Shown piece after piece: positions 6,550 through 23,909 of a DNA stretch of 42,500 nt; the first letter of the stretch is position 1; each line of letters starts with the position of its first letter. Source of the DNA: an uncultured Eubacterium sp. (GTDB lineage Bacteria > Bacillota > Clostridia > Oscillospirales > Acutalibacteraceae); NCBI GenBank assembly GCA_902462495.1, contig CABQCC010000001.1, positions 1 to 42,500 of the forward strand, given 5' to 3'. Both the position numbers and the translations under genes were made by a program. The notes under the pieces are model-generated. The model searched no databases and was not told the DNA's origin. It saw nothing but the letters and a program-made list of their open reading frames with translations.

Positions 6550-6575
6550 CAAAATTTATCCCTTAAACTTTTTGC

Positions 6576-6615: not shown

Positions 6616-6624
6616 ATTAATCTG

Positions 6625-9600
6625 TCAACCCGTTGTGTCAAGTTCCGTGCCTTGCCCTGTACCGTTTGATTTGTTGTCTAAGATTTTTTCGTCAAAGAAC
6701 ATATAGGCGCCACCCTTGTTTTCGGCTTTTGAATTGCCCAATGCAACATATTCGGACGAAACATTGTTTTCCATATTGTCGAACTCTTCTTTTGAAATCA
6801 AGTAAACCTTACCCGATTCAAGAAGCTGAAGATCCATATTTCTCCAATTTTCAAATCTATGGATGTTGATATAGAAAGTCTTGATGTCAACAGTATCGCC
6901 GATTACCGAGCCCCAAATTTCTTGATAGAAGCCGTCAAAAGTTACGGCACCGTGCGGAGCATAGAACAATGCCGACATTTTGCCATAAATTGCATTATAG
7001 GTGATATTGCCCCTGTAAGCGGCAATAGCATTTGGCAATTGATACAAATTGTTGTCGTCATTTTCCGAAGCATTATAGAACGGGTCGGAAATAGACACAT
7101 CGCCCTTGCAAGCCACAAGATAAGACATTCTCATCTCGGTTGAAGTTGATATGGTGATGTTGTTATTAGCATAAATCGTAACCGGACAGGTCACATTTTT
7201 CCTGAGCGTTTTTTTGTCAAGGAGAGCACCGCACTTGTCACACTTATATGTTTTATTCGGGTCATAATTCTTTGTATAAACCACATATCCGTGAGGGTGC
7301 TTTGCCTTGTTTTTACATCTCAATGTTGTGTAAACATCGCCTCTTGAAACAAAACCGCTGTAGCCATCGCCTTTTATTCCGCCTACCAAATCAAGGCTTG
7401 GTGTTGAACACTTGAAGTCGTGGCCAAAGTAAGCCAAAGAATCGTGACACAACAATACTTTGCCGAATGTAAGCAAATCGTGTGTGCCCATAACGGAAGC
7501 ATTCTTGTTCAAAGTGAAATCACCCATTGCATAAATTGAGCCGTTCTTGAATGACAATTTATCCTTCAAGTTATATGCAAACAATTTGAGGTTTTTGATG
7601 ATTTCGCCACCGACTGTGCCATCACTTTCAAAATTTGCATCAACATGCTTGTAGGTGTCGTTTTCATACGCCTCAGGAAGAACCCACATATCAGAGTTAC
7701 TTCTGAGTGTTATGTATCTGTTTGCAAATACATATTTGCCGACCGTTGTGCTGGAGAAACCGTATTGTCTGATATAACCCAAATACGATACCAAAGCCTT
7801 GCCGATGTAGAATTCACCGCCGTCAGCCTTGTCGGTATAATCATCAAGCAAATCGTTTTTAAGTTCTTCTGCATTTTCATCTGCTATTGCGCACTTGCTA
7901 AAATCGCCCTTACAAACAGGACAATCAGGGTTTGCCTTGCTGCACTTTGAAGTACAAATACAAACCTTGTCGTCTGAATTGTCAGGATTTTCAGCCTTAC
8001 AGCTATGCCAATCAGAACCGTGAGTGCCGTTGCAGACAGGACAATCGTTGTTGAAATTGCCGTCTGTGCACAATTCCGAACAGATACATTCATAAGGTGC
8101 CTTACATGCGTCGGCAGGTTTGCTTGCATTGCCGCAAATCGGGCAATCCTTGTCGTAGTCATCATTTGTACAATGACCTGTACAAGTACAAACATTGTCG
8201 CCTGATTTCGGTGTTTCGTATCTAAGGGTATCCTTATATTTTGCATCGTATTTGCCGAGTTCAATATATCTGAGTGCGGTCATATTGCCTGCACAGAATA
8301 CCTTTGTTTTGTCAGCAATGTTGATTTTGCCGAGTGTTGCCTTTATTGAACCGCAAGCATAAACTATTGCACTTGTTTTTGCCTCAAACGAAGTTCCGCA
8401 CTTTATATCGCCGCCGCTGAAGATTGTGCCGTGCTCACGAACACAAACATAGTTCCAAGCGTTGATATTATCCTTTGCGAAAATTTCGGAATACTGACCT
8501 ACATCAATATATCTGTGAGTCGCAATCTTTCCGCCCGAATATACGCTTGTGTCGTGCATAAGCTTAACCATTCCACGAGGAGTGTAATCCTTTCCGGTTC
8601 TGATTGTTGTGCCCGGATAAATATTTACCTTTCTGTCGAGGTCAAGCTTGCCCTGAACATAGAGATAGCAAGCGTTTGCATAGTTATAATCGAACTTTGG
8701 ATTTTGGACTTTTTCTCCGTCTTTTTGGATAAATCTCGGTTCATCTTCGTCATCAACGAATGTGCCCTTAGATGCCCAAGTGTCGCCGTCATCGGAAACA
8801 TTGAGCGCTCTGCCGATTTCAAATGCGGTAATCTTGCCGAGAACATCGGTTCTGTTAACCAAATCGCCGTAAACATAGAACTTTGTCATATCGGAAATTC
8901 TTGCTCTGTCGTTGAGCAATGCGCTTCCGTGAACATAGAATCTGTTGAGCATTGTCTTTGTTCTGCCCTCTCTAAGAGTAGCCTGAACATCGAATCTGTT
9001 GTTTACAACAAACTTAAAGTTGTCAAGATTATAGCCGTCAATCTTAAGGCTGAGATTTGTCACACGGTTTTGAAGCCATGTGATAAAGTTGGTTGTTGTG
9101 TTAACTCCGCCCTTGTCAAGACCGTCAACGATAAATGTCAAATTCTTGTGAGGGGTGAAGATACTGTTTGTGAAGAATGAACCGCCAACATAGATGTTTG
9201 CATTTGAGAAAACATCAAAATAGTTCCATGTGCTGACACCGCCCCAGCTACCTGCAAGGTCACCGGCTCCGCCTTGACCGTTGGTGCTGATTGCCATATT
9301 TCCGCCAACATAAAGATATGAACTTGAGTTGAGGTCGTCCTCACTGTTTGCTTTTTCAGAGATACCGATTCTTGCGCAACGCTTTGAAATGAAGTTGCCG
9401 TCACACATAAGCATTGAGTTACGCATTGTAAGTGTACCGCTGTTCGAGAAAAGTTCGCCCGAAACGAATGTGCTTGAACCGACTTGTGCAGAAATTGCAA
9501 CATAGTTGATTGCATAATTTTCATAAGAATACGACTTCATGCAACCGTCAACATACATCTTGCCGTAGTTTTGGATTGTGCCGCCTATCTTTTCTTGGGC

Positions 9601-12600
9601 TGATTCTTTTTCGCTTGTGCCGACAACGAGGTCGCCTCCTGCAAAGAACACAGCCTCCTTAACAGGTGCGGAATAATCACCCTTACGCTCCGGATAAAAT
9701 GCAAATCCATTTACGATAGAATAAGTACCTTTCCAGTCACCTGCCAAAGCAGTTCCTGTTCTGTAATATCTTATCCAAAGGCTTCTGATTTCGTAGTTAC
9801 CGAACGCATCGGCTTCGCCAAGTTTGTTTACATTCTTAGTAAATCCAACTTCGCCTGTGTATCCGACTTGATGCTTAGCGTAGAATATACCGCCGTTGAG
9901 AATAATCTGACCGTATGTTGCGTCGCCCTCTGCGGAGAACACAGGCATTTCTTCTTTTTTGCCCGTTGTGTCTCTGTTAAAGGTTACATATCCTGCAAAC
10001 ATAGCAACATTTCCGCCAAAGTTTGCTCTTGAGCCTTGCTCTGCAACGATAGATGCCTTTGCACCCCATTTGTCGTTCATTGTACTATACACGGAATATG
10101 GGTCTTCACCGATAGTTCTCATCCACAGGTAAGAACAAGAATTATAACCCTTGATGTACACATCCTGCATAATATTAATTTTGCCGTAGTTTTGAAGATA
10201 GCCGACAAAAATAATTGTATTCTTTGAAACAATGCCTTTGTCTCTGTCGATATAACCGCCGATGTAAATGCTTGCATTGCGATTGTTTGAGCTACCGTTA
10301 AGGATTGATTTACCTTCTTTATAGTTCGAATCACCCTTATCGGTCGGCCAAGTTCTTGCGTCTGCTTCTTCTGTTCCGTCTGCTTTTTTGTAATTTACAA
10401 ATTCGCCGAATACATAGAACTTGCCGAAGTTATAAATTGCAGAGTCGGAATAGAACGCACCGCCACAAGAAAGCGAGCAATTTTCACCGACATAAACAGC
10501 GTTGCCGAGATTGTTGTTTTTGCCGTTTGAGAAAACATCGCCTGTTACATAAAGGTTTGAATTGCCCTCAACAATGATAGCTTCACCACGGTGTGGAACA
10601 AGATTGTTTCCGCCGATTCCGCCCTTGCTCTTTGAATTGTTTGCAAGGTTGCCGTTTACTATTATATCATTGTCAAAGAACAAGGTTTGTTCGCCAAAAG
10701 CATTAAGTTCTTTGTTGAACTCAAGTTCTCCGCTCTTTGTCCTGCCGATGAATACATCGGCCTTTGGACCTGTGAAAGCAATGCGATCCTCAATATTAGA
10801 AAGTGAAGATGTTGTTGAGCCGTCTTTATAGTATATTTTACCCGTGACATACAATGTGCCCTTGACATTGAGTTTGCCACCATTGGTAAATCTTATGTTA
10901 TTGGCGCAAAGCATCTGACCTTCCTTGATTGTAATTTCGCCCTCAACCTGGACATTACCGCTTGTAACAATTCTTACACCGTCTGCCCTGAAGTTATTTT
11001 CCGAAATGGAAACATAAGCATTCGGGTCGGGAGCGTAGAACGAATCACTCGATTTATACAATTTGGTTGATGGAATTCTTGCATTTTGAGGAGTGAACAG
11101 TACACTCGCATTTGTAAGTGTAACTATTCCCGGATATGTTACAACCTCGTTGCCGTTTTTAATTTTCAAAAGATAAACATATGATTTGTTTGCGGTAATC
11201 GAGTAGAACCTAACGCTGTTGCCAAAGCAGTAAATTCCTGCAAAGTTTTCAAGGTACAAATCTGTTGTAACAGCACATTTGACATTATCCTTGATATAAA
11301 CAACGCCACCGTCCTCGATGTAGAACGACATCAACAAAGGACAAGTATATTCGCCATAAACATACATACTACCCTTTACTGTTTGTGTATTCTTGTTACT
11401 GATAAAATCAGGTGGAGTAACATTAAGATTTCCGCCAAAATAAAGTTGTGCGCCTGTTTGATAGCAATTAATCAAACCGCTGTTGTGACTGTTTTTAGCG
11501 GTTAGTCCTTGATAGCCATATACGCTATATACAGCCTTTTCGGCATCTGCATCAGGATTTTCGGCAATCATCATACCGTCACTTTTATCCGAAAGTGGCA
11601 CATCACCGTAAACATAGAGTTCTGCCGAGCCTTCCATATAGACATTGTTCTTAACGCCGTCTACAGAATACGAAACAGAGTTGGACACATCGGCATCACC
11701 GTAAACATAAAGTTCTCCTGCGGTTGCGTGAATAGCACCGGAAGCAACTATATTTCCGTTGACATACATATTGCCCTCATTAAAGAGAGAAATGCTGTTG
11801 CTGTCATATCCTGTGAATTGAAGTTCTCTCGGACCCGCAAAGGCAAAATTTGCACCTGCCTTGTTCCAAATATATTGGATTTGGAAATCCTTTGAGCCGG
11901 AATCAATAAAGAGTGTGCCCTCATTTTCGATTTTCTGTGCAGAAATCTTTGTTAATTTAAGCTTTGTTCTGTTTACAAGAGTTTCGCTGATTGTAAAAGA
12001 GCCGTTATATTTGAGAGAGCATTTTGCATTAATCTCAAATTTCTTGGTTGAGATATTGCCCTTATCAACATAAATTCTGCTGCCCTTGTAGGAACTGAAA
12101 GTATCGACAACACGAACATTAATGTCGTGTGCAAAGAAATCGGCATAGTTATCAATATGATATGCATAAATCTCTGACGAGGTGCTTGCACTTACAAAGA
12201 ACAAAGCATCGTGATTGTCAATTGTTCCGTTTGTGATTGTACCGCTGACACTTACATTTGAATGGCAATAAACCTTTCCGAAGTTATTGAAAGCACAGCC
12301 TGCTGTTTCGCCCTGCAATGTGCCGAAACACTCAAACTTGCCATAATTCAAAATATTGCCAAAATCTTTAATGTTAACATTTGATACAAAATCACCGTTG
12401 TTTACAAGGGTGTTCATATCGTTACCAAAACTACCGCCGTAAGTTTCGATAACACCGTAGTTTATGATATTACTGCCCGACTTAGAGCCTTCAACATAAA
12501 TCGTCTTGAATGCGCAGATACTTACTACACCTTTTTCGTTATTTTGAAGATTGTTAAAGTAGCATTGATTGTTTGAGCAAACAAAATTGTTGTTTTCAAA

Positions 12601-15600
12601 CAAGCTGTTTGCAACGATAGAGCCTGCAATGCTCATTTCGCCGTTGTTGACAACATTAGATTTAAATGTTGCGCCATACGAAGTGCATTGGAACTTTGCA
12701 TTTGCCGAGTTCACAACACTTCCTTTAAAGGTTGCATCGCTGTCAATCTTTAATTCATTATTGTTTGTAACAGTATTGAATTTGGCAATTCCGCTGATAT
12801 GCAAAATACTGTTATTTTCCAAATCTTCAACAGTGCAAGTGTTGTCAACTCTGATTTCGCCATCTGTATTGTTGAGGAGTTTTCCGTTCACAACAAGATT
12901 GTTTGCCTGAATCTTGCCCATATTTGTGAGATTTTTTACAGTAAATGTAGCAGGACAAATAATCTTGCTGTCTTTCTTGTTTTCTACGGTTGTAAATTTA
13001 AAATCACCGCTGACATAGATTTCTCCGCCTGTTGAACGGGAAGCACTGTATTCATTGACGATTTTGTTGCCCTCTGCACTGCCGATAACCTGAATTGTCT
13101 TGTGGTTATTGATTGTTCCCGTGCAAACGAGCTTTCCGTTAAAGCCCGGATTTGTTGAAACTTTTGCCACACCAATCAAAGTATCGCTGAAATTGTCGAA
13201 TGTGCCTGAAACTTCAAGAGTATTTGTAACAAGGAATTCGCCGTAGTTTTTGATGTCCTTGGCAGTACAGTTGCTGACAACCAAAAGCTTTTTGCCCTCT
13301 TTGATTTCAATCTCGTCGGCTGACTCGATTTTGTTGATAGAAGCGTTTGCATCTATAACAAGTTTTGTTGCTTTGATGCTGTCAATATAAACCGAAGTTC
13401 CGTCCTTGATTGTGAGGGTGTTAACTGTGATACTGCTGTCCTTTGGAATGCAGAAGCCGCCGCCCTGTTCGATTGTAAGGTCGTTGATATTAAGACCTGG
13501 TGCAGAAAGGAAGCTTCCGTTATAAAGTGTATAGTTGCCGTTGCTCTTTTGGAAGCCTGAAATTGTACCTGTTGCGCCAAGCGCAAAGACTTTGTTTTCA
13601 GGGCTTGTTTTGAATACAAGACCTCCGCAGTTAGAGATTGATTGTCCTGAAGTATTGTTGCCAAGGATAAGTTTTACACCCGGATTGAAAGTGAGCGTCT
13701 TGCTGTCCTGAAGATAGATTTCTTCTGATGCAAAAATGTGAGCATTTTCTGCAAACTCGGTTGTTCTGACATCCATCTTTTGACAGATAACATTGCCGAA
13801 CAGCGAAGTATATTCTGTCTTGACCTTGTTACTCTTAATCATATCGGTAACAATGAGGGAACCCTTTTCGCAATTATATCTTGTTGCGTTTATTCTATGC
13901 TTCTTGTCACCTTGAGTAACAAGCACAGAACCTGTTTTCATACTAAGGGTGTAATCACCGCTTACATCAACAACGCCGGTTTCCGCATTGTCTTTCCATT
14001 CATCAGGTCTGTTTGCAACAACAATAGCATTTTTGCCGATAGTGATGTCGCCACTGCTTTTTGCGGAAAGGTCTCTTCCGAGATAGGTTTGAGAACCGTC
14101 GCCGAAATTCATATTTCCACTGCCGCCGTCATAGAAAATGGCTCTTTGGCAGAAAATCTTGCCGTTCATAACAATGTCTGAGCCGGAAACCTTTTTGATG
14201 TCGCCGATTGCATAGATTTGGCTACCCTTTTCAGCCGTCATTGTGTTCATAGAAACAGAGTAATTTTCTTTTGTGTTTGCTTGCTTTGAAACAACAACAG
14301 AATTTTCTCCGACAGTGAATTTTCCGCCAACTCGGATTTCAAATCCACAAATAAGCTTTGAGTTTTTACCGATAATGAGATCGTGACCGTCGACAAACAC
14401 ATGACCGTCAACAATTACGGTTGTGTTGTCGCCGATAGTCAAATCGCCATTATCCACTTCAAGGTTTCCGCCTATATGCATATAGGTAGGCTTTTCGCTG
14501 TCTGAATTATCGCCGATTACGGAATTGGCTGAACCATTTGAAATTTTAACATTATTTTTTACATAAACCGAATGTCCTGATTTAACTCTGATACCAAAGT
14601 AAGAATATGCAGGCCAAGTGCCTTTCCAAGGTTTTTCGATTTCAGAATACTTTGTTTTGTCACTAAGTTCATATTGCCACTTGTCATCATTGTATCCTTC
14701 AACCTTATATACTTTTCCGCCGTCAGTCCAGCCTGCTGTGGACTTAAGAACACGAAGTTCGGTATATTTATCGTTTACAATTTCGCCGATATCATCAGCA
14801 GTCATTTTGAAGTCCTTGCGAGTATCTACAACAATGCTGTCAACTGTTTTTTTGACAACTCCGTCCTTGCCAGGAAGCAAATCTTCGTATGTATAAGTTT
14901 TATCAACATTAACAAGTTTGTTATTTTCAAAATCAGGCTTTAGGTAATTCTTTGAAATGTTCGATGTACTTTCGGTTTCAACACTTACGCTGGTTTTGAT
15001 GTCATATCCAAGGTCAGCAAGGGTTGCGTCAACCAAAGTTCTGTATCTTGACGGAACTCTGTCAACCCTCAAATCCTCAGGGATAGTGAGTTCTGCCTCG
15101 TCGATAGCTTCGGTTTCAGCCTCAATTTTCTTAATTTGCTTGTCAAAATAAGTTTTCTTTGTGCCCGATGACATAAGGAACACATCTTCCTTTTCAGGGG
15201 CAGAATCTTCAAACTTACTGTCATTTGAAAGAGTAAGTCTGTTTTCGATATAATGCTTTTTCTTAGCTACCGCATCACTGCCATAGTGCTTGTCGTAGTC
15301 GGAAATAGTGGAATTATTATAATCGTCATCAACAAGGACATCTTCTTTTTCAAAGTTCTTTACCGCATCCTTGCCGTATTTGCTTGAATTCTTCTTTGCA
15401 TACGAATCAATAACATTTTTGGCAGAATTGAGTTTTCCGTTTTTGTCAAAAACTTTTGTGCCGTTATATGTGGTGTGACGATTGTCATTACTGCCGTACT
15501 TTTCAAGCGTGTATGTTTTGTAATCCATACTGTTTCCTGACGGATCGGTAGAAGTAAGTTTAAACTTCAAAAGCGGTGAAGTTGCTTGATTTGTAAGCAC

Positions 15601-17601
15601 ATCCGATGATGCAAAAGAATTGTCAATATAAGTGTCGGCTTTGCCTGCTTCAACTTTTGATGGGTCGTTTGTTGCGTCTGCCGCACTGTTTGAAAATGTG
15701 CCGTCTTTGTTTTCAACAGTTCCAAGAGTGTTCTTGAGATTTATGGTTTTCTCAAGTTGGTTTTGTGCTTTCTTTACGGCTTCTTTTACAGATACAGAAT
15801 CCGAAATCTCGGTGCCGTTTTCATTGTTAGAATCGTCATACTTAGATATAGTTGCGTTTCTTACAGAACGGTTTACAACTCTTACAAAATAAGGGCGCAT
15901 ATTCGGAATAGCCATAGGGCTTGCATTTTGCTTGAATGTTTTGGCAATTGCAAAGCGATAGCCTGCTTCCGCCTGCTCGGTAACTTTGCCGAGTTTGTTC
16001 ATCTGAACAACATTTCTGTTAGTGTTTTCGGCATCAATAATTTGCAATTCCGCAGTTTGGTCACTATCCGACTTAGTGAATGTGATTGTACTGTTTTCCT
16101 TGTCTATCTTTGTGCCGTCATACAAAAGCAAGCTTTCGTTGGTAGCTGTTGGGTCATAACCTACCGAAAGGAAGCCTTGGTAAAGCTCGCTCATATTTGT
16201 TGTGTTGTTTCGAATGTCCTCCATTATTTTGTTTGCCATAGCATTTGTTGTGGCATAAATAATAGACTTTTGTCCAACAAGCTGATATTTATTTTTGGAA
16301 ACATATTTAAGATTATCCGCCTGTGCAAGAACAGCATTTTTTTGCGCCTCAGGAAGATTTATGCACTCCTTTAAATAAACCTCGCCTGCTTCAAGGAAGG
16401 CTCTTCTCAAAGTCTCCTGACTTGTGATTTTATTAAAATCCATTTGGTCAATGATATAAAGAACTGCCTGTGTTTGTTCGATATACTGATAGTTTCTGAC
16501 ATAAACACGGGTGTTAAGGTCTTTTTCAGAGCCAATAACTGTTCCGACAAGAGAACCGTTTGCTATTTTGCCTGCCGAGAAATCAATCTTATTAACAGCG
16601 GAAAAATGAACTCGATTGTAGTCATCCTCGGTCTGGGTATCACCTGTACACTTTCTGAAATCTTTTTTACAAATATCACAATAGGTATTTACCGCGCCCT
16701 CGGCGCACAACGATTGACAAATACACTTTGGGCTTTTGCCATTGTAATCCGCATCTTTGCCTCGGCTTGCCTGAATTGTATTTACACCGATGCTGATGTC
16801 GGCATTTGAGTGAACATCGGAATTGATAATAGCGTGAGAAAGGCTTGCGTTTACAAGTTCGTTGTAGTTTGGCTGACCGCCAACCCAGCCAACGATTTTT
16901 TGGAAAAATTTCTCATTAACCTTATTAATAAAGTTAACGAAAATGTTTGTTATTGCCTGAGTATTGTTAGTTCTTCCGTTGATTCTGAGCGCCATTTCTC
17001 TGTAATCATCACTTGTTTTGGAAGAATTTGCGATAATGGAATACTTAAAAGCCTCAGGCATAGCATACGGTTGCATTTCGGTCTTGGCATAACCCACTCC
17101 CGTAGGGGCAATGTTAAGTCCTGAAATAGAGCTAAAAAAGCCTTTAAGCTTTACTTTGATGGAAATTTTTATGCAGGCATAATCCATATAAGAACCCTCA
17201 AGTTCCCTATCGTCATCCTGATTTTCTTCCCAAATACCGCCTTTTCTTTCAACGGTAACAGTTGCACCCGGGTCGTCGTTGCTTCCGTATTTAATTACGG
17301 TTTTTGATGCAGTAGATTCGCCCTCGTCCACAACACCCTCGCCGTACTCGGTAATGTCAAAGCGATTCTTGCTCATATAAGTTTCAACATTTTTCTGTAT
17401 ATCGGAATCATCGCCGATATTTTCAATCTCGTGCATAACAGAATATGTTGTAGCATCTACCGCATTTTGCAATTTTGCCCATTGATAATAAGTCATACCA
17501 ACATCTATAATCAATGCGAGAACAGACAAAAGTGCAAGACTGGCGAATATAGAAATAAGCGCTATATCGCCGTTTTCGTTGCGTCTAAACAATTTTTTCA
17601 A
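6625..17601 (-). CDS. Giant (~3660 aa) TadG-type pseudopilin / putative pilus adhesin with beta-solenoid repeats and Cys-rich modules
   Basis: N-terminus KKLFRRNENG|DIALISIFASLALLSVLALIIDVGMTYYQWAKLQNAVDA matches the TadG-like prepilin pattern (basic leader, Gly, hydrophobic helix, DxG...LQNAxDA). Last gene of the tad cluster; uninterrupted 11-kb frame. SD GAGGAG abuts GTG 17610, so TTG 17601 is the likelier start. Confidence 0.85.
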   Translation of the reverse strand: MKKLFRRNENGDIALISIFASLALLSVLALIIDVGMTYYQWAKLQNAVDATTYSVMHEIENIGDDSDIQKNVETYMSKNRFDITEYGEGVVDEGESTASKTVIKYGSNDDPGATVTVERKGGIWEENQDDDRELEGSYMDYACIKISIKVKLKGFFSSISGLNIAPTGVGYAKTEMQPYAMPEAFKYSIIANSSKTSDDYREMALRINGRTNNTQAITNIFVNFINKVNEKFFQKIVGWVGGQPNYNELVNASLSHAIINSDVHSNADISIGVNTIQASRGKDADYNGKSPKCICQSLCAEGAVNTYCDICKKDFRKCTGDTQTEDDYNRVHFSAVNKIDFSAGKIANGSLVGTVIGSEKDLNTRVYVRNYQYIEQTQAVLYIIDQMDFNKITSQETLRRAFLEAGEVYLKECINLPEAQKNAVLAQADNLKYVSKNKYQLVGQKSIIYATTNAMANKIMEDIRNNTTNMSELYQGFLSVGYDPTATNESLLLYDGTKIDKENSTITFTKSDSDQTAELQIIDAENTNRNVVQMNKLGKVTEQAEAGYRFAIAKTFKQNASPMAIPNMRPYFVRVVNRSVRNATISKYDDSNNENGTEISDSVSVKEAVKKAQNQLEKTINLKNTLGTVENKDGTFSNSAADATNDPSKVEAGKADTYIDNSFASSDVLTNQATSPLLKFKLTSTDPSGNSMDYKTYTLEKYGSNDNRHTTYNGTKVFDKNGKLNSAKNVIDSYAKKNSSKYGKDAVKNFEKEDVLVDDDYNNSTISDYDKHYGSDAVAKKKHYIENRLTLSNDSKFEDSAPEKEDVFLMSSGTKKTYFDKQIKKIEAETEAIDEAELTIPEDLRVDRVPSRYRTLVDATLADLGYDIKTSVSVETESTSNISKNYLKPDFENNKLVNVDKTYTYEDLLPGKDGVVKKTVDSIVVDTRKDFKMTADDIGEIVNDKYTELRVLKSTAGWTDGGKVYKVEGYNDDKWQYELSDKTKYSEIEKPWKGTWPAYSYFGIRVKSGHSVYVKNNVKISNGSANSVIGDNSDSEKPTYMHIGGNLEVDNGDLTIGDNTTVIVDGHVFVDGHDLIIGKNSKLICGFEIRVGGKFTVGENSVVVSKQANTKENYSVSMNTMTAEKGSQIYAIGDIKKVSGSDIVMNGKIFCQRAIFYDGGSGNMNFGDGSQTYLGRDLSAKSSGDITIGKNAIVVANRPDEWKDNAETGVVDVSGDYTLSMKTGSVLVTQGDKKHRINATRYNCEKGSLIVTDMIKSNKVKTEYTSLFGNVICQKMDVRTTEFAENAHIFASEEIYLQDSKTLTFNPGVKLILGNNTSGQSISNCGGLVFKTSPENKVFALGATGTISGFQKSNGNYTLYNGSFLSAPGLNINDLTIEQGGGFCIPKDSSITVNTLTIKDGTSVYIDSIKATKLVIDANASINKIESADEIEIKEGKKLLVVSNCTAKDIKNYGEFLVTNTLEVSGTFDNFSDTLIGVAKVSTNPGFNGKLVCTGTINNHKTIQVIGSAEGNKIVNEYSASRSTGGEIYVSGDFKFTTVENKKDSKIICPATFTVKNLTNMGKIQANNLVVNGKLLNNTDGEIRVDNTCTVEDLENNSILHISGIAKFNTVTNNNELKIDSDATFKGSVVNSANAKFQCTSYGATFKSNVVNNGEMSIAGSIVANSLFENNNFVCSNNQCYFNNLQNNEKGVVSICAFKTIYVEGSKSGSNIINYGVIETYGGSFGNDMNTLVNNGDFVSNVNIKDFGNILNYGKFECFGTLQGETAGCAFNNFGKVYCHSNVSVSGTITNGTIDNHDALFFVSASTSSEIYAYHIDNYADFFAHDINVRVVDTFSSYKGSRIYVDKGNISTKKFEINAKCSLKYNGSFTISETLVNRTKLKLTKISAQKIENEGTLFIDSGSKDFQIQYIWNKAGANFAFAGPRELQFTGYDSNSISLFNEGNMYVNGNIVASGAIHATAGELYVYGDADVSNSVSYSVDGVKNNVYMEGSAELYVYGDVPLSDKSDGMMIAENPDADAEKAVYSVYGYQGLTAKNSHNSGLINCYQTGAQLYFGGNLNVTPPDFISNKNTQTVKGSMYVYGEYTCPLLMSFYIEDGGVVYIKDNVKCAVTTDLYLENFAGIYCFGNSVRFYSITANKSYVYLLKIKNGNEVVTYPGIVTLTNASVLFTPQNARIPSTKLYKSSDSFYAPDPNAYVSISENNFRADGVRIVTSGNVQVEGEITIKEGQMLCANNIRFTNGGKLNVKGTLYVTGKIYYKDGSTTSSLSNIEDRIAFTGPKADVFIGRTKSGELEFNKELNAFGEQTLFFDNDIIVNGNLANNSKSKGGIGGNNLVPHRGEAIIVEGNSNLYVTGDVFSNGKNNNLGNAVYVGENCSLSCGGAFYSDSAIYNFGKFYVFGEFVNYKKADGTEEADARTWPTDKGDSNYKEGKSILNGSSNNRNASIYIGGYIDRDKGIVSKNTIIFVGYLQNYGKINIMQDVYIKGYNSCSYLWMRTIGEDPYSVYSTMNDKWGAKASIVAEQGSRANFGGNVAMFAGYVTFNRDTTGKKEEMPVFSAEGDATYGQIILNGGIFYAKHQVGYTGEVGFTKNVNKLGEADAFGNYEIRSLWIRYYRTGTALAGDWKGTYSIVNGFAFYPERKGDYSAPVKEAVFFAGGDLVVGTSEKESAQEKIGGTIQNYGKMYVDGCMKSYSYENYAINYVAISAQVGSSTFVSGELFSNSGTLTMRNSMLMCDGNFISKRCARIGISEKANSEDDLNSSSYLYVGGNMAISTNGQGGAGDLAGSWGGVSTWNYFDVFSNANIYVGGSFFTNSIFTPHKNLTFIVDGLDKGGVNTTTNFITWLQNRVTNLSLKIDGYNLDNFKFVVNNRFDVQATLREGRTKTMLNRFYVHGSALLNDRARISDMTKFYVYGDLVNRTDVLGKITAFEIGRALNVSDDGDTWASKGTFVDDEDEPRFIQKDGEKVQNPKFDYNYANACYLYVQGKLDLDRKVNIYPGTTIRTGKDYTPRGMVKLMHDTSVYSGGKIATHRYIDVGQYSEIFAKDNINAWNYVCVREHGTIFSGGDIKCGTSFEAKTSAIVYACGSIKATLGKINIADKTKVFCAGNMTALRYIELGKYDAKYKDTLRYETPKSGDNVCTCTGHCTNDDYDKDCPICGNASKPADACKAPYECICSELCTDGNFNNDCPVCNGTHGSDWHSCKAENPDNSDDKVCICTSKCSKANPDCPVCKGDFSKCAIADENAEELKNDLLDDYTDKADGGEFYIGKALVSYLGYIRQYGFSSTTVGKYVFANRYITLRSNSDMWVLPEAYENDTYKHVDANFESDGTVGGEIIKNLKLFAYNLKDKLSFKNGSIYAMGDFTLNKNASVMGTHDLLTFGKVLLCHDSLAYFGHDFKCSTPSLDLVGGIKGDGYSGFVSRGDVYTTLRCKNKAKHPHGYVVYTKNYDPNKTYKCDKCGALLDKKTLRKNVTCPVTIYANNNITISTSTEMRMSYLVACKGDVSISDPFYNASENDDNNLYQLPNAIAAYRGNITYNAIYGKMSALFYAPHGAVTFDGFYQEIWGSVIGDTVDIKTFYINIHRFENWRNMDLQLLESGKVYLISKEEFDNMENNVSSEYVALGNSKAENKGGAYMFFDEKILDNKSNGTGQGTELDTTG
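7891..8190 (-). repeat. Three tandem six-Cys protein modules (C-x-C-x3-C-x6-8-C-x2-C-x6-10-C)
   Basis: CTCTGHC..DCPIC..C, CICSELC..DCPVC..C and CICTSKC..DCPVC..C in the translation (about aa 3141-3240 of the 3661-aa ORF). Confidence 0.9.
16648..16725 (-). repeat. Single N-proximal copy of the six-Cys module
   Basis: CICQSLCAEGAVNTYCDICKKDFRKC (about aa 296-321); shares CKxDFxKC with the last C-terminal copy. Confidence 0.85.
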
Positions 17602-17648
17602 AGCAATCACTCCTCTTGCTTACAGGCTGTTACTTGTTTAGGCAGAAA

Positions 17649-18296
17649 CTATTGAACATCCTCTGCCTTTGAATGTGCAAGCGACAACTCGGTTTGAAGT
17701 CTGAAAATCAAATCCTCGCACTTGTCGATTGCTTCCTCGTATATTTTTGAAATTTGAATAAAGCGTTCGTCGGTTACATTTGTGTAGTTTTCCTCGGCGC
17801 TTGTTCTCAAATTGTTGATTTCCGAACGATTTTTGTCAACCTTTTTTGTAAGATGTGCAACATCTCTCTTGAGGTCCTCGTTTTCCTTGGTGAGCTTTCT
17901 GTTTTCATCACCCAGAAGTCTGTGTTTGCTAAACAAAGCGTCATATTTTTCCTGCAATTCTTTTAGTTGAGAATCGTCAACAACTTTAACCGCCTTAGGA
18001 GCTTCGTTGATTTTTTTCATCAATCTTTCTTTTTCTTCAGTTGCAAATTCATTTTTTGCGGTAAGGCTCTTAACCTGCTCCTTGAGTTCATTAACCTCGT
18101 ATTCAAGCATAGAATTTGTGTTTCTGAGGTCCTTGACCTGATTGTCAAAATTCTCCGAAGCATTCTTTTGCACATTGATAAGGTTTGAGATATATTCGTC
18201 AACCTGTGCGGTGTCATAGCCTCTGAGGGACTTGTCAAATTCCACCTTGTTTGTACCTAAAATTTGGCTTCTGTCTACGATTTCTTTGTTACTCAT
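17649..18296 (-). CDS. DivIVA-domain coiled-coil protein
   Basis: N-terminal VEFDKSLRGYDTAQVDEYI matches the DivIVA/GpsB motif F...xRGYdxxEVDxF; remainder is a long heptad coiled coil. Confidence 0.8.
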   Translation of the reverse strand: MSNKEIVDRSQILGTNKVEFDKSLRGYDTAQVDEYISNLINVQKNASENFDNQVKDLRNTNSMLEYEVNELKEQVKSLTAKNEFATEEKERLMKKINEAPKAVKVVDDSQLKELQEKYDALFSKHRLLGDENRKLTKENEDLKRDVAHLTKKVDKNRSEINNLRTSAEENYTNVTDERFIQISKIYEEAIDKCEDLIFRLQTELSLAHSKAEDVQ

Positions 18297-18322
18297 TGTT
18301 CAATTCTCCACTCCGAAATAAT

Positions 18323-18667
18323 TTATTTGAATATCAGAACATCCCCGACATTTATGCCGAGTTGTTCAGCAGTTCCCGCATTCAGTTCAAGGATTTTTTT
18401 TGCGTTTTTAACCTTTTTTCTGACCTTATGCGGAGGAACGGCAGGGTCGATAAACAGCACCCTATTGTCCTTGTCAAGTGCGACGGTATCTATGGAAAAC
18501 CGCATACCGAAAGTGTGAATTTCGTCACACGGTGTAAGAAGCAAGCCGTGATTTTCTGCCATATTCTTGCGGTACATCAAGCCCATAAATCTGCGCACAA
18601 AATGATTTGCGTTTTCAACTTCTTCTACAAGGAGCTTGTCACCCTTGTATGCTTTTAACATTTTCAT
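18323..18667 (-). CDS. DUF192 family protein
   Basis: VEEVENANHFVRRFMGLMYR...GLLL...IHTFGMRFSIDTVALD...ILELNAG...INVGD motif set. Confidence 0.85.
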   Translation of the reverse strand: MKMLKAYKGDKLLVEEVENANHFVRRFMGLMYRKNMAENHGLLLTPCDEIHTFGMRFSIDTVALDKDNRVLFIDPAVPPHKVRKKVKNAKKILELNAGTAEQLGINVGDVLIFK

Positions 18668-18669: not shown

Positions 18670-19611
18670 TTAGAATAATCCGCCTTTAAACTGATCCATT
18701 ACCTGAATAATAACCGGACCCATAATAATACAAATGATAGCCGGCAAAATCAAAAGAACGGTAGGGATAGTCATCTTTGTCGGAACTTTTGCAGCTTCTT
18801 CTCTGATTTTTTCTCTCTTTGCAACACGGAGCTGTTCAGACTGTGCGGCAAGTACATTTGTAATCGGAATACCGAGAGTATTTGCCTGAATAACGGCTGA
18901 AACAAAGGTTTTCAGCTCATCAACATCTGTTGAATCCGAAAGTGCTTTAAGTGCGTCGTTTCTGCTTTTACCAAGTTGAATTTGCTTGAATACGGTTACA
19001 AGTTCATCAATAAGCGGACCTTCCATACGCTCGGACACCTTGAGAAGCGAGGCGTCAAAGCTAAGACCTGCCTCCATACAAACGCTGAGGAGGTCAAGTG
19101 TGTCGGGAAGCTGTGCTCTGATTGCGTCCTGATGGCTTTTGATTTTTTGCTTCAAAATAAAGGTTGGTGCAAGCACCGAAAGCATTGAGCCGACAACAAT
19201 TACAAGCCAAAAATAGCTTGTTACATCCATCAACAACACGCCGATACCCGTAAAAACGATTGTGCCGACGATTGCAACGGCAGTTTTGAGATAAGTAAAA
19301 CTGCCTGTCGACATATGAAGTCCTGCCTTGCGAAGCTGAAGAGCAAGCTTTTGAGTTTCCTGTCTTTTACGAGCGGATTTTGTCTGCTTATTGCCCTGGT
19401 CGTCAAGGTTTGAAAGTTTTTTAACAAGCGGCTTGATGTTACGGTCGTAGAATGAGGTTTCTATGTTTTTGTATTCTGCGGTAACAGCCTCTTTGTCGAT
19501 AGACTTCATTCTTTTGAGGTTGTTGTCCTCTTCTTTACCCTTTTTGCCGAATATTGCTATGCACAAAACCAAAATAAGCAAAGCATATGTAATTACCAAT
19601 AAAGCTACCAT
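18670..19611 (-). CDS. tadC: Tad platform protein TadC (T2SS-F family)
   Basis: QLPDTLDLLSVCMEAGLSFD, LGKSRNDAL, EEAAKVPTKMTIP; several TM helices; follows tadB. Confidence 0.92.
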   Translation of the reverse strand: MVALLVITYALLILVLCIAIFGKKGKEEDNNLKRMKSIDKEAVTAEYKNIETSFYDRNIKPLVKKLSNLDDQGNKQTKSARKRQETQKLALQLRKAGLHMSTGSFTYLKTAVAIVGTIVFTGIGVLLMDVTSYFWLVIVVGSMLSVLAPTFILKQKIKSHQDAIRAQLPDTLDLLSVCMEAGLSFDASLLKVSERMEGPLIDELVTVFKQIQLGKSRNDALKALSDSTDVDELKTFVSAVIQANTLGIPITNVLAAQSEQLRVAKREKIREEAAKVPTKMTIPTVLLILPAIICIIMGPVIIQVMDQFKGGLF

Positions 19612-19621: not shown

Positions 19622-20593
19622 CTACATCTTTATGCTTACAATCTTCTTTACGGCGATGAAGCAAAGAACTTCAAGACCTATCGCAATACCCAAGAATATG
19701 TGTCCTGTGCTTGTTGTGAAAAGCGGCATAATGAATTCTTTGTTTACAAAATAGAACAACACGCAAAGTGCAATCGGCATTGAACCTACCATAACGGCGG
19801 TTGACCTGCCCGAAGCGGTTGACGCTTTAAGTTCTTGCTTGAGTTTCATTTTTTCCTTGATAGAGTTTGCAATACCCTCCAAAATTGACGAAAGGTTACC
19901 GCCTGTTTGTCTTTGGATAAGCACCGATGAAACCATAAGCGGCAAATAGTCGCTGTTGATTCTCTTATTGAGTCGTTCAAGCGCTTCTTCCATAGGCATA
20001 CCCATTGTCATTTCTTCAAGAACAATAGCAAATTCCGAAGCAATAGGGTCGGGCATATCTCTTGAAATAGCTTCCATTGCCTGAGTGAAGCTCAAACCTG
20101 CACGAAGCGAACTGCAAGAAATCATCAAAGCGTCCGAAAGCTGAACATCAAACTTTTTAACTCTTTGTTTTTGCTTGATTTTTATAAGTACGAACGGGAT
20201 AAACGCACCTACAACGGTTGCGCCGAGTGCAACAGGTGCAAGGCTCTCCGAAATAAGAAGAATAAACAAAGCCGGCAAAACCGAAATGATTATCCAAATC
20301 AGCAAGAATTCTTCGGGACGCATCTTGATGTCCGCACTTTGAAGCTGACCGTAAAGGGCAGAACCGATTTTTACAAAAAAGCTGTTTTGACCATCTTTTT
20401 TCTTGCGTCTTTTTTTCTTGCTTTTAACAAGAGCAACCTCTGTGTAGCCCTCCTGCTTTTTCAATTCTTCCATTCTTTTGTCTGCGGCAATCTTTGAAGA
20501 GCCTAAGGTATAAGACAAAATGTAGGCAATAACAAAAGCCAAAAGAGCAAATGCTGCGGTAATTAAGATTATACTAATCGTTGAACCAGTCAT
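19622..20593 (-). CDS. tadB: Tad platform protein TadB
   Basis: QLSDALMISCSSLRAGLSFTQA, DPIASEF, IQRQTGGNLSSIL; overlaps the tadA end by 20 bp. Confidence 0.93.
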   Translation of the reverse strand: MTGSTISIILITAAFALLAFVIAYILSYTLGSSKIAADKRMEELKKQEGYTEVALVKSKKKRRKKKDGQNSFFVKIGSALYGQLQSADIKMRPEEFLLIWIIISVLPALFILLISESLAPVALGATVVGAFIPFVLIKIKQKQRVKKFDVQLSDALMISCSSLRAGLSFTQAMEAISRDMPDPIASEFAIVLEEMTMGMPMEEALERLNKRINSDYLPLMVSSVLIQRQTGGNLSSILEGIANSIKEKMKLKQELKASTASGRSTAVMVGSMPIALCVLFYFVNKEFIMPLFTTSTGHIFLGIAIGLEVLCFIAVKKIVSIKM

Positions 20594-21932
20594 TGTTAAC
20601 CACTACTCCGTTTTCTCTTATTTTTTCAACACATTTAGGGATGATGCCTGTCGGCTTAAATGTACCCTTGAACTTACCGTTTGAGTCATATTCACCCTCT
20701 GTTTCGTAGGTGAATATATCCTGCATTCTGACAACATCTCCCTCCATACCGACAAGTTCGGAAATAGAGGTTACTTTTCTTGAACCGTCACGCAAACGAG
20801 CCTGCTGAACAATGAGGTTGATAGCTGACGAAACCTGGTCTCTGATAGCCTTTGACGGCAATTCGGAACCCGACATCATAACCATTGTTTCTATACGGGA
20901 AATCGAGTCCCTCGGTGAGTTGGCGTGAATGGTGGTGAGTGAGCCGTCGTGACCCGTGTTCATTGCCTGAAGCATATCCAATGTTTCTTCGCTACGAACC
21001 TCACCTACGATGATACGGTCGGGTCTCATACGAAGTGAGTTTACAACGAGGTCTCGGATACTGATTCTACCCTTGCCCTCCATATTTGCCGGACGGGCTT
21101 CGAGAGTCAGAACATGCTCCTGATGAAGTTGAACTTCGGCTGAGTCCTCGATTGTGATAATTCTTTCATCCGACGGAATGTATGACGAAAGTACATTAAG
21201 AAGTGTTGTTTTACCCGAACCTGTACCACCCGATACAATTATATTAAGTTTGCCTTTTACCGCTGCTTCCAAAAATTCGAGCATTTTCGGCGAAACCGAA
21301 CCCCATTTTACAAGGTTTTCGGCTGTGATAGGTGTTTTGCCGAACTTACGAATTGTAAGAATCGGACCTACGAGCGAAAGAGGCGGAATAATTACATTTA
21401 CACGAGAACCGTCAAGCAAACGGGCGTCACACATCGGGCTTGATTCGTCAACATGTCTGCCTACTTTTGATACGATTCGGTCGATAATTTGCATAAGATG
21501 TGCGTCATCTTTGAACTGAATGTCAGTAAGGACAAGCTTACCGTGTGATTCAACATAAACATGGTCGTGACCGTTTACCATAATTTCCGAATATTGGTCG
21601 CTGTCGATAAGCGGTTGAATCGGACCGTAGCCCATAATATCGTCAAACAATTCTTTTTTGACAACCTCTCTGTCAACTCTTGCAATATTAAAATCCGGTC
21701 GTTCAACATATTCGTCAATGAGTTTTCTCATTCCCTCATCAGAAATGTCGGCATTGTCCGCACCGAGCTGTTGCTCGATAATCAATGCGTGAATTCTGAT
21801 TTTAACCTCTGCGTATCTGTCCTCAAGAACAGGTTTGATTTTTTCTGCGCTGTCAAGAGGATTGCTTGTTTGCGGTGAGGAAATGCCCTCGGAAATGTCG
21901 GGTGTTGAACCGTATCTGTTAAGTAGTCCCAT
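20574..21932 (-). CDS. tadA: Tad pilus assembly ATPase TadA/CpaF
   Basis: EIMVNG, DESSPMCDARL, Walker A GGTGSGKTT, TIEDSAE, LRMRPDRIIVGEVR, AMNTGHDGSLTTIHANS. Confidence 0.97.
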   Translation of the reverse strand: MGLLNRYGSTPDISEGISSPQTSNPLDSAEKIKPVLEDRYAEVKIRIHALIIEQQLGADNADISDEGMRKLIDEYVERPDFNIARVDREVVKKELFDDIMGYGPIQPLIDSDQYSEIMVNGHDHVYVESHGKLVLTDIQFKDDAHLMQIIDRIVSKVGRHVDESSPMCDARLLDGSRVNVIIPPLSLVGPILTIRKFGKTPITAENLVKWGSVSPKMLEFLEAAVKGKLNIIVSGGTGSGKTTLLNVLSSYIPSDERIITIEDSAEVQLHQEHVLTLEARPANMEGKGRISIRDLVVNSLRMRPDRIIVGEVRSEETLDMLQAMNTGHDGSLTTIHANSPRDSISRIETMVMMSGSELPSKAIRDQVSSAINLIVQQARLRDGSRKVTSISELVGMEGDVVRMQDIFTYETEGEYDSNGKFKGTFKPTGIIPKCVEKIRENGVVVNNDWFND

Positions 21933-21963: not shown

Positions 21964-23166
21964 TTATTTTGAGAAAAGTCCTTTTTTCTTGCCCTTGGCA
22001 GATTTTGCAAGACCCTCCTTGCCCTCACGCTCCATAATTACCTTGTCGGCAAAAGCATTAAGTTCTTTTGCGAACGGTGATCTCGGTTTGTATGAAACGG
22101 CAGGCTGACCGCTATTGAGCGAGTCGTTGATTGTTTTGAGGTCGCTGGAGAAAATAGCGTAAGCCTCCATATTCAAAATATTTTCGTAGTCGCTGATTTT
22201 TACATTGTTTTTCTTGGTGTTCTTGTTGATAACAAGCTTTACTTTGTCTGCCTGATTGATTTGGTACAAAACATTTTGGCAAAGCTTTGCACGCTTAAGG
22301 GACAAAATATTAACATCGTTTACCATAAAAATGGTGTCGCTTGATTCAAGCGCTGTGATGACAGGGTCGGTGAGAATGCAACCGCAGTCAAGGATGATGT
22401 ATTCATAATTATTTCTTGCAACATCAATGATAGCCTTGACATGACCTGCCTGAACGTACTCGGCAAGTTCGGGTGATGACGGAGAAGCAAGCACCGAAAG
22501 ACCCGAAGCGTGAGTTACGGAACAATTTGTGATATTGTCAATTGATATGCCGAGCGAATCTCTTACAACATCAACGATGGTTTCTGTCGGGTTGAGGTCA
22601 AGCGCCATATCCGAGTCGCCAAACTGGAGGTCAAGGTCAACAAGGAGAGTTTTTTTGCCACGGCTTGCAAGATTGACTGCAAGGTTGGTGGAAATTGTTG
22701 TTTTTCCGACACCGCCTTTTCCGCTGAAAAACGCATAAACATGCGACCTTGTTTTTCGCTCAACATTGATTTTTTTGCTGAGCTTTCTTTCGCTGTTGAT
22801 TACGCCTTCAAGATTTTTTGTAAGGTCCTCAGGCTTGATGTCGAGGCTCATAACCTGACGGACACCGTAGCGAGCAGCCGTGTTTACAAGGTCAACCGTT
22901 ACATCATCGGTCATTACAACAGGTGAGCAACCGTTTGAGGCAAGTTCCATATCCTCGATAAATGCAAAAAATTCTTCGTCAATATCAGCACTTTCCGCTG
23001 CAAAAATTACAACATCCGGTGAATAACCCAAAATTCTTGTTTTGGCTTCGGTGTTGAATTCGCTGTAGCCTATGATTTCAAGTTTTTCCGGGTCAATTTT
23101 GTTTTTGATATTTACCTTGATGTCGGTTTGCTCGGCGCAAACGACAACGCTTATTATGTCAGACAT
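21964..23166 (-). CDS. tadZ: TadZ/CpaE: receiver-like domain plus MinD/ParA-type ATPase
   Basis: N-terminal receiver-like fold without the acidic residues; SGKGGVGKTT, LVDLDLQFGD, YIILD; C-terminal KKKGLFSK candidate membrane-targeting tail. Confidence 0.9.
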   Translation of the reverse strand: MSDIISVVVCAEQTDIKVNIKNKIDPEKLEIIGYSEFNTEAKTRILGYSPDVVIFAAESADIDEEFFAFIEDMELASNGCSPVVMTDDVTVDLVNTAARYGVRQVMSLDIKPEDLTKNLEGVINSERKLSKKINVERKTRSHVYAFFSGKGGVGKTTISTNLAVNLASRGKKTLLVDLDLQFGDSDMALDLNPTETIVDVVRDSLGISIDNITNCSVTHASGLSVLASPSSPELAEYVQAGHVKAIIDVARNNYEYIILDCGCILTDPVITALESSDTIFMVNDVNILSLKRAKLCQNVLYQINQADKVKLVINKNTKKNNVKISDYENILNMEAYAIFSSDLKTINDSLNSGQPAVSYKPRSPFAKELNAFADKVIMEREGKEGLAKSAKGKKKGLFSK

Positions 23167-23204: not shown

Positions 23205-23909
23205 TTATTTAGCATTCGCAGGTGCTGTTGTCGGAGCATTGTTTCTATGCTTCAAAACAAGCTTGAACGAATTTTCATTTTCGATTTTATAAAGTGCAAG
23301 TGCCTGCTTTTCCGTTACCTGAACGGTGAGTGTGCTGTACTCGGTAAGGGTTGTGCCCGAAGCGGAAGCATTCTTGCTGGCAGTAGCTGTTGAAACTCTC
23401 ATAATAGGAAGATTTTTGTAAGCAACCTTTGATTTTTTGGTTTCTGCATCATAGACCAAAACATCAACCTTGTCGCCCTCGTTGATGTAGCCGTCAACAC
23501 TTGTTACGCTTCCTGCACTGAAAGAATAAGCAACCTTGCCCTTTGGAAGTTTGAGCGAAAGAGCAACATCCGCACCGTTGAGATCCTCAACTCTTTTGAC
23601 ATTGATCGGTTCGCCTGCATAAAGCGGGTCAACAGTTACCTTGCCGACAAGCTGGCTTTGATCTGTTGCAACATTTTCTGCATTAACATCGGAAGCAACA
23701 ACTGTTTTCTTTGTGAAAATGCCTGCGTCCTCAGCAAACATTTCCTCGGTGATGCTTGAGTTTTGAGCCAAATCGTTTACAGGAACGATAATCTCAACCG
23801 TATCGGCATCCTTGATTGTTGTCTTTTTGTCGATTTCACTTGCAAAGAAATATGTAGCGAAGCCTGCGATTAATGCAAAAATAACTGCGATTAAATAAAC
23901 TTTTTTCAT
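23205..23909 (-). CDS. cpaB: Flp pilus assembly protein CpaB/RcpC
   Basis: N-terminal TM; SAF-like segment (LVGKVTVDPLYAGEPI); LPKGKVAYS...VDGYINEGDKVDVLV...TLTVQVTEKQALAL. Confidence 0.9.
   Translation of the reverse strand: MKKVYLIAVIFALIAGFATYFFASEIDKKTTIKDADTVEIIVPVNDLAQNSSITEEMFAEDAGIFTKKTVVASDVNAENVATDQSQLVGKVTVDPLYAGEPINVKRVEDLNGADVALSLKLPKGKVAYSFSAGSVTSVDGYINEGDKVDVLVYDAETKKSKVAYKNLPIMRVSTATASKNASASGTTLTEYSTLTVQVTEKQALALYKIENENSFKLVLKHRNNAPTTAPANAK

Follow-up and report, generated by a model that had tools for sequence, protein, structure and literature searches.

A 3,658-residue TadG-like protein encoded at a monoderm tad locus, a candidate tip adhesin of the Tad pilus

A 42,500-nt stretch of DNA from an uncultured Eubacterium sp., a gut member of the Clostridia (GenBank contig CABQCC010000001.1, positions 1 to 42,500 of the forward strand; hereafter the window) carries on its minus strand, at the end of a tad locus, a gene for a giant protein that very probably belongs to the TadG/CpaL family, whose members are minor-pilin-like proteins of Tad (type IVc) pili. 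By analogy with CpaL and TadG, this protein would be located at the tip of the Tad pilus and have an adhesive role there, a reading to which we give a probability of roughly 0.55. A preliminary description of the same DNA, made from its letters, had proposed a TadG-type pilin of about 3660 aa and roughly 400 kDa, carried as a long, rigid adhesin on the pilus tip; the analysis reported here upholds the identification and qualifies the account of shape and size.

The open-frame listing placed the frame at 6625..17610 (minus strand) and counted 3,661 aa from a GTG. The gene start was assigned to the TTG at 17601-17599, with an AGAGGAG ribosome-binding site at 17616-17610, 8 nt upstream, and 83 of 87 relatives start with MK at this TTG position, the exceptions being three called from further upstream and one that is truncated. 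The stop codon lies at 6625-6627, so that the coordinates 6625..17601 given in the preliminary description match exactly the 3,658 aa read from the TTG. The product has a mass of 402.4 kDa and a pI of 5.5, is rich in N, G, S, K and T, and contains the following features.

6625..17601, minus strand: giant TadG-like gene, TTG start, 3,658 aa plus stop, 402 kDa; 79 relatives
17047..17601, minus strand: N-terminal module, aa 1-185, with leader MKKLFRRNENG, conserved Gly11, hydrophobic alpha-1 helix and small beta-sheet
16648..16725, minus strand: first six-Cys motif CxCxxxC..CxxC..C, aa 293-318 (partial PF14283 match, regular expression, invariant Cys)
6859..14739, minus strand: predicted right-handed beta-helix body, about aa 955-3581, with non-helix inserts (AlphaFold2 (AF2) for aa 955-1197 and the last 1,200 aa)
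7891..8190, minus strand: three further six-Cys motifs, aa 3138-3237 (regular expression, invariant Cys columns, low AF2 confidence)
6628..6867, minus strand: conserved C-terminal tail, aa 3579-3658, with HRFxNWRxMDL, SGxVYLIS and GGAxxFF (invariant columns)

A chance open reading frame or a mis-assembly is excluded for this gene. The genome of the window is fragmented (212 contigs), which is what could be said for a mis-assembled, chimeric or decaying and functionless frame, a possibility that we consider negligible. A word-indexed search returned 79 relatives with 33-94% identity, 77 of which are 3,172-3,736 aa long and come from many independent assemblies and an isolate genome, and self-BLAST found no internal repeats (0 off-diagonal matches at E <= 1e-3), which together argue against mis-assembly. 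Conservation extends along the full length of the protein, also against two relatives of 33-34% identity, with peaks at aa 1-800 and 2700-3600 and a minimum at aa 800-2300. Across window positions 5000-24999, all 30 of 30 bins are covered by two DNA runs, and one contig spans the giant gene start together with the gene upstream. The mis-assembly that the preliminary description had named as refuting its proposal is thus countered by relatives of similar length and by the DNA coverage.

The N-terminus reads MKKLFRRNENG-DIALISIFASLALLSVLALIIDVGMTYYQWAKLQNAVDA, and a hidden Markov model search, as had been suggested in the preliminary description, matched PF13400 at 17446-17565 (aa 13-52) with 27.6 bits on local scoring (cut-off 22.3), and with 20.1 bits, below the cut-off, when the whole 3,661-aa protein was scored. 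Precomputed PF13400 annotation is present in 59 of the 79 relatives, and the TadE profile PF07811 reached 12.7-19.7 bits on the giant protein, below its cut-off. In a 29-row alignment G11, D12, I13, A14, I16, F19 and A20 are invariant, while the diverged giants keep E-x-G followed mostly by small or aliphatic residues. The leader end ENG of the giant matches the (D/N)E(N/D)G-type ends of the Flp and TadE pilins encoded at the same locus. With cleavage taken after Gly11 (NENG/DIALI, the slash marking the proposed site), the residue at +5 is Ile, so that the Glu characteristic of canonical type IV pilins and TadE is missing from the giant (G/DIALI), as had been noted from the letters. The AF2 model of aa 1-1197 contains a helix of 46 residues (12-57), a second helix and strands at 89-91, 100-107, 110-120, 141-150 and 167-175; five strands after a helix are the pilin topology, here predicted at a predicted local distance difference test (pLDDT) score of 33-72.

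This N-terminal helix is also the only evident anchor, as the preliminary description had held. Kyte-Doolittle windows of 19 residues exceed 1.6 only at starts from residue 10 to 21, the protein contains no LPxTG-like motif, the hydropathy maximum in the last 300 aa is 0.83, short of a hydrophobic C-terminal tail, and no S-layer homology (SLH) or other wall-anchor domain was matched by Pfam. A sortase- or SLH-anchored wall protein was considered and rejected on these three grounds. The first 700 aa of the giant are 62, 53 and 48% identical to their counterparts in three loci in which TadA is 90, 90 and 87% identical, a faster change than in the machine proteins, as expected for an exposed protein, and the sequence comparison thus fits an exposed surface.

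The genes upstream of the giant gene, all on its strand, were assigned as follows.

17649..18296, minus strand: coiled-coil protein, 215 aa, with weak DivIVA/ZapB-like matches below cut-off, directly upstream of the giant gene; in 10 of 11 related loci
18323..18667, minus strand: DUF192 protein (PF02643, E 9.8e-21); in 11 of 11 loci
18670..19611, minus strand: TadC platform protein (PF00482)
19622..20593, minus strand: TadB platform protein (PF00482)
20574..21932, minus strand: TadA/CpaF ATPase (PF00437, E 1.6e-64)
21964..23166, minus strand: TadZ/CpaE-like ParA-type ATPase (PF13614, PF01656)
23205..23909, minus strand: RcpC/CpaB (PF16976, PF08666)
24021..24701, minus strand: TadE minor pilin (AEDG/QSMLEF), the sole gene of the genome above the PF07811 cut-off
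24817..24990, minus strand: Flp major pilin, 57 aa (DENG/QGMLEY; PF04964 29.1 bits, below the cut-off of 32.2; assigned by motif)
25026..25724, minus strand: A24 prepilin peptidase, TadV-like (PF01478 27.8 bits, over cut-off)

The Pfam assignments thus confirm a monoderm tad locus that ends with the giant gene. Flp, of 57 aa, would be left with 47 aa after the proposed cleavage, and both it and TadE carry the Glu at +5 that the giant lacks, in agreement with the preliminary description on each point. A PF00263 search of the genome, which is 93.8% complete, found no secretin, again as had been stated. In the same genome there is one PF13400 gene, the giant, and one gene above the PF07811 cut-off, the tadE of this locus. 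One search for related loci, among genome contigs, gave a single locus. The order A24 peptidase, Flp, TadE, RcpC, TadZ, TadA, TadB, TadC, DUF192 protein, coiled-coil protein (where present) and giant recurs in all 11 of the 11 related loci inspected, over as much of it as each stretch contains, including one in another genus that encodes a 2,624-aa version of the giant protein. Among 101 genomes of the genus, the same 43 have both tadC and the giant gene, and the other 58 have neither; this co-occurrence is not a statistical test, because the genomes are kin. Collectively, these results demonstrate that the giant gene is strictly linked to a complete monoderm tad locus.

Next to its linkage, the size of the protein sets it apart. 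In a class-level sample, PF13400 had 73 matches in 57 of 399 genomes, and the 72 frames other than the giant are 130-1,202 aa long (48 below 500 aa, 24 at 570-1,202 aa, none longer); the giant is about ten times the usual TadG size, and the earlier statement that TadG proteins are normally far smaller holds. In a family-level sample, 13 of 201 genomes matched, including the window's own, and the matches comprised eight frames of 363-659 aa that match over the first 50-100 residues only, three frames of 265-637 aa that match in the Cys motif only, and, as the exception, the 2,624-aa frame in another genus. Within the genus the gene was found in 43 of the 101 sampled species, with open frames mostly of 2,100-3,680 aa. 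Residues 1-260, searched by phmmer against 1.84 billion representatives, gave 54 matches at E <= 0.001, of which 25 are 2,315-3,673 aa long, so that the giant is one of a family of TadG-like proteins of 2,300-3,700 aa. Eight shorter relatives of the same region (127-1,884 aa, 47-97% identity) were examined as possible small TadG proteins and rejected, since they resemble contig-end fragments of the giant family. When nine TadG-like proteins of ordinary size were compared with the giant by BLASTP, only their N-terminal 70-125 residues or so matched (E 1e-6 to 3e-9); the co-linear C-terminal match (a YAPxG...G-x-V/I-x-G cap) had an E of 0.3 and is not significant, and the picture of the giant as a small TadG with an insertion comes only from this C-terminal motif, seen by eye.

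The family is already in the databases under an automatic name, since an orthologue of 3,655 aa from Eubacterium coprostanoligenes is called 'TadE/TadG family type IV pilus assembly protein' by NCBI and 'Flp pilus assembly protein TadG' by UniRef, and one 90%-identity cluster of relatives holds 372 member sequences. These names, like the PF13400 matches, bear out the TadG-type assignment of the preliminary description. A literature search on giant Tad pilins, beta-helix TadG and Clostridia TadG found no paper on such a protein, with subscription journals and supplements outside the search. The statement that no Tad pilin of this size is known to have been described is supported as regards papers, but the protein is not unique: it is an extreme new variant of the TadG/CpaL family and not a new kind of protein.

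The body of the giant was modelled by AF2 in two parts, aa 1-1197 (29 rows, mean pLDDT 58.9) and the last 1,200 residues (24 rows, mean 61.6). In the first, an alpha/beta region at aa 366-560 (block means 58-86) is followed by poorly predicted helical stretches and, from about residue 955, by a beta-helix with a pLDDT of about 89-97. In the second, three-stranded coils of about 20 residues each occupy most of the length, broken by a low-confidence stretch (model residues 360-520), a Cys-rich stretch and a helix, and a 75-residue low-confidence tail comes last. The body is thus predicted to be largely a right-handed beta-helix, with aa 1198-2458 assumed to be of the same fold from the style of the sequence. 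The long, rigid adhesin of the preliminary description is sustained in so far as a long beta-helical body is predicted, but a free-ended rod would give way to a loop or hairpin if the C-terminal strand returns to the N-terminal module as it does in CpaL.

Structural comparison by VIA-align matched the modelled beta-helix to right-handed beta-helical adhesins (EtpA, the serine-rich repeat protein (SRRP) binding region, tapirins), which are its best structural matches, with polysaccharide lyases and phage tailspike depolymerases also among the matches. Foldseek against the PDB returned no match at E <= 0.001 for either model, among 92 and at least 500 rows at E <= 10, and a family profile had no match at E <= 1 among PDB sequences. 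In the ESM Atlas, aa 1198-2458 scored 0.90 at best, with low recognition, unnamed clusters and weak leads to haemagglutinin and autotransporter beta-solenoids, and aa 186-950 gave no usable match. NCBIfam gave nothing useful on the protein, neither Pfam nor NCBIfam identified a catalytic family, and Pfam matched no two-partner-secretion (TPS), haemagglutinin or autotransporter family in this protein of a monoderm. An adhesin of the TPS or autotransporter type was accordingly rejected: it would share the beta-helix fold, but a TPS domain or a C-terminal beta-barrel was not found.

The six-Cys motif CxCxxxC..CxxC..C occurs in four copies with invariant Cys, and these explain a partial match to the CD1107-like family PF14283 (28.5 bits, cut-off 26), in which only profile positions 71-112 of 158 are aligned. 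Membership of that family was rejected because a full-length match is lacking and the matched stretch is the six-Cys motif itself, which is common to the CD1107-like mobile-element family. A further conserved stretch with four Cys, resembling a zinc ribbon, lies at about aa 3429-3472. In a protein that an anaerobe exports, these Cys motifs may serve as metal sites or form disulfide knots.

After the last coil the protein ends in a conserved tail, in the order HRFxNWRxMDL, SGxVYLIS, GGAxxFF. GGAxxFF is present in 75 of 75 close full-length relatives; among 25 diverged giants HRFxNW is kept in 24 and xxxFF within the last 45 aa in 21, five of which end exactly at FF. This tail recalls the closing C-terminal strand of Caulobacter CpaL. 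The extreme C-terminal strand of CpaL is modelled as adding to the sheet of its own N-terminal pilin module, its deletion nearly abolishes piliation, and CpaL without its middle ~470 residues retains ~38% of wild-type piliation (PMC13533445). The head of the giant (aa 12-185) was therefore folded against its last 80 aa, the tail. This gave scores of 0.34, 0.36 and 0.40 against 0.01 for the best control, with a partner pLDDT of 40-41 and at least 43% of contacts shared between runs. For calibration, 80 solved complexes and 110 mismatched pairs were scored, of which 58 and 2, respectively, reached the mark; those that did so at scores <= 0.60 were only 7 of the 80 solved complexes but both of the passing mismatches.

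Taken together, these features are consistent with the following course of events, in which cleavage by the peptidase, incorporation at the tip, rigidity and adhesion would follow the models of CpaL, TadG and KilN (PMC12075869, PMC12607857, PMC13533445). The giant would be inserted by the Sec pathway with its leader in the cytoplasm and the remaining ~3,600 residues exported, and the A24 peptidase of the locus would probably cut after Gly11, given that the leaders of Flp and TadE have the same (D/N)E(N/D)G-type end. The giant would then act as the apical subunit without Glu5, of the PilK/GspK/CpaL kind, that together with TadE primes the polymerisation of Flp, and would stay at the tip. The tip complex from which type IV filaments grow has as its cap a subunit without Glu5 (PMC10191384), models of a TadE/F/G tip complex make TadG its large backbone and give it a modular C-terminal domain (PMC12075869), and CpaL/TadG acts as an analogue of PilK/GspK (PMC12607857, PMC13533445). 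The beta-helix would represent an insertion, ~3,400 residues long, that separates the pilin module from the C-terminal tail and is exposed as a long spacer or adhesin, reaching through the cell wall into the gut environment. With ~2,290 helix residues, 20 residues per coil and 4.8 A per coil, it would form ~115 coils and measure ~55 nm as a rod, or about half of this as a CpaL-like hairpin, if the unmodelled parts are all helix.

Several points weigh against a tip adhesin. The pilin-like module is predicted at low confidence, the head-tail contact has weak support and is a hint only, and the Ile at +5 differs from the F/E of the CpaL consensus G/A-X4-F/E (PMC12607857), which makes cleavage after Gly11 uncertain. 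Residues 1198-2458 lie outside the models, and the autocorrelation of their hydrophobic and G/N/D positions is within the range of shuffled sequences and so is uninformative on beta-helix periodicity. Pfam detected no von Willebrand factor A (vWA) or other recognised binding domain at E <= 1. The locus provides one TadE-like partner where model systems have two, and reviews of 2019 and 2023 treat TadG as a component of the cytoplasmic membrane whose role is unknown (PMC6916266, PMC10191384). RNA-library contigs (X3 and X5, from one study) fall on 17 and 16 of the 30 bins, which leaves transcription unproven, DNA carry-over being possible; the bins without contigs carry no weight either way. 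Finally, a tip of 402 kDa must still cross the Gram-positive wall; the preliminary description had reasoned that without a secretin no outer-membrane pore would limit the size of the tip, and one size limit is indeed removed, but the thick cell wall is still in the way.

Some of these points would equally suit a membrane-anchored surface fibre or machine part, in which an uncleaved signal anchor holds a wall-spanning beta-helix beside the Tad machine that serves as a guide, a stalk or an independent adhesin co-regulated with the pilus. The single hydrophobic segment with no other anchor, the +5 Ile in place of E or F, the uncertain pilin-like fold and the older view of TadG in the two reviews all speak for it, and tens of nanometres of beta-helix could be enough to bridge a Gram-positive wall. 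However, in its Gly and its leader end ENG the giant agrees with Flp and TadE from the same locus, the modelled N-terminal helix, at 46 residues, is longer than a plain anchor, the conserved tail and the weakly supported head docking fit the scheme of CpaL, and recent experiments put CpaL/TadG with the tip complex (PMC13533445), so that we consider this arrangement unlikely, though it is the strongest competitor of the tip adhesin. Far less probable is that the giant is a cargo of a Tad machine working like a type II secretion piston, cut by the peptidase and expelled from the cell, or shed from the tip, as a free beta-helical adhesin, matrix protein or enzyme. The lyases and depolymerases among the structural matches and the genes for host-glycan use nearby point in this direction, but the best structural matches are adhesins, the protein has no catalytic family, its hydrophobic alpha-1 helix would be insoluble, and the strict one-to-one linkage with tadE and flp suits a structural part better.

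Carried to its end, the tip-adhesin reading gives a picture that we hold tentatively, at somewhat less than even odds. An apical Tad-pilus subunit with a beta-helix of ~3,400 residues between its pilin module and a closing C-terminal strand would be the largest pilin-like protein noticed so far; as a rod or hairpin of 402 kDa and 25-55 nm it would tip a filament built of a 47-residue pilin, its slender shape would let the tip thread the Gram-positive wall, and in a common gut genus the family of 2,300-3,700 aa would provide Tad pili with their adhesive end.

Further observations concern the locus and its surroundings. The genes that separate tadC from the giant gene (17649-18667, minus strand) encode the DUF192 protein, found in 11 of 11 loci, and the coiled-coil protein, found in 10 of them. 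In two genomes of the genus the tadC match holds one in-frame TAA (G221:C169:7442-8392 and G264:C7:40583-41533), and their tad loci may be decaying. RcpC/CpaB is encoded in this monoderm locus and in every related locus that covers the region; a review lists it among the parts absent from actinobacterial monoderm Tad systems (PMC6916266). Flp varies much more than the proteins encoded around it, with 59% identity in the closest related locus (L001, flp at 2612-2773), where TadZ, TadA, RcpC and TadC are 98-99% identical, and one DNA run yields contigs that skip 86 or 116 bases within flp, which suggests strain-level diversification of the pilin. A gene for a 383-aa class I S-adenosylmethionine (SAM) methyltransferase (25891-27042, minus strand) adjoins the prepilin peptidase gene upstream and keeps this position in five related loci (53-97% identity); as TadV-type peptidases are without the methyltransferase domain that PilD has, a separate enzyme that methylates the pilin is conceivable. 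Downstream of the giant gene (5204-6552, minus strand) follow genes for a 261-aa protein that has no Pfam match and a single hydrophobic segment at its N-terminus, and for a 4'-phosphopantetheinyl transferase, and both also follow the giant gene in a related locus (L017; 81% and 78% identity). On either side of the locus (2-1027 and 28237-31453, minus strand) lie genes for lacto-N-biose phosphorylase, L-fucose isomerase and an FGGY sugar kinase, a hint that the organism uses glycans from its host or from milk.

Tad pili are colonisation factors. Proposals of 2025-2026 have Tad tips customised by TadG-type proteins, and the giant family extends their size by an order of magnitude, in a monoderm. 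The giant is thus a natural test of how large a cargo the tip complex of a type IV pilus can bear and move across a cell wall, and of the generality of the CpaL rule that the head and the C-terminal strand are essential and the middle is free to vary. The gene occurs in 43 of the 101 species sampled from a genus that is common in gut metagenomes, and relatives come from many assemblies. Its ligand, if the protein is an adhesin, be it mucin, dietary fibre or other cells, would bear on how these bacteria hold their place in the gut. Bench tests look feasible, since the genome entry of Eubacterium coprostanoligenes contains an orthologue.

Among known systems, the predicted beta-helix fold is shared, as judged from structural matches, with EtpA/HMW1/HxuA of two-partner secretion, the autotransporters pertactin/Ag43/TibA, the SRRP binding region of L. 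reuteri and the tapirins of Caldicellulosiruptor. There is no sequence relationship to these adhesins (0 Foldseek matches at E <= 0.001 and 0 PDB profile matches at E <= 1, as above), and unlike them the giant has no TPS domain, beta-barrel, serine-rich repeats (Pfam) or LPxTG, its anchor being the Tad-type N-terminal helix. PilC/PilY1 and MshQ are likewise large proteins at a type IV pilus tip, held there through a C-terminal beta-strand added to a PilK-type pilin (PMC13533445), but they are not pilins, have no N-terminal pilin helix, measure ~1,000-1,200 residues and belong to diderms. PilB and PilC of Streptococcus sanguinis, a monoderm, display an adhesive module on a tip-located pilin (PMC10191384, PMC12075869), as the giant may do; they are bona fide processed pilins of type IVa, not Tad, with lectin and vWA modules of ordinary size. 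A further comparison is with the KilN, KilL and KilM tips of the Tad-like Kil pilus of Myxococcus, in which models place a large TadG-homologous minor pilin with an extra domain of unknown fold, along with TadE/F-like pilins, at the end of the pilus (PMC12075869). That system belongs to a diderm predator, is linked to an apparatus like a type III secretion system and has several interchangeable tips with far smaller extra domains, whereas here there is one locus and one giant.

The last comparison is with CpaL of Caulobacter crescentus and with TadG. CpaL has ~600 residues, and the giant is about six times longer; the vWA domain with a MIDAS motif (an adhesion site that depends on a metal ion) that marks CpaL-type TadG proteins was not found in the giant, whose insert is a predicted beta-helix. 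The host of the giant is a monoderm without secretin, in which one TadE-like partner takes the place of two, and the conserved C-terminal motif of the giant lies ~20 residues before its end, where closure onto the head is weakly supported by the models. What the giant has in common with CpaL and TadG is an N-terminal Tad-type helix with a module that in the giant is predicted, at low confidence, to be pilin-like, linkage of its gene to tad genes, the lack of Glu5, and a large region between the pilin module and a conserved C-terminal element, an architecture for which the role of an apical primer like PilK/GspK has been proposed (PMC12607857; PMC13533445).

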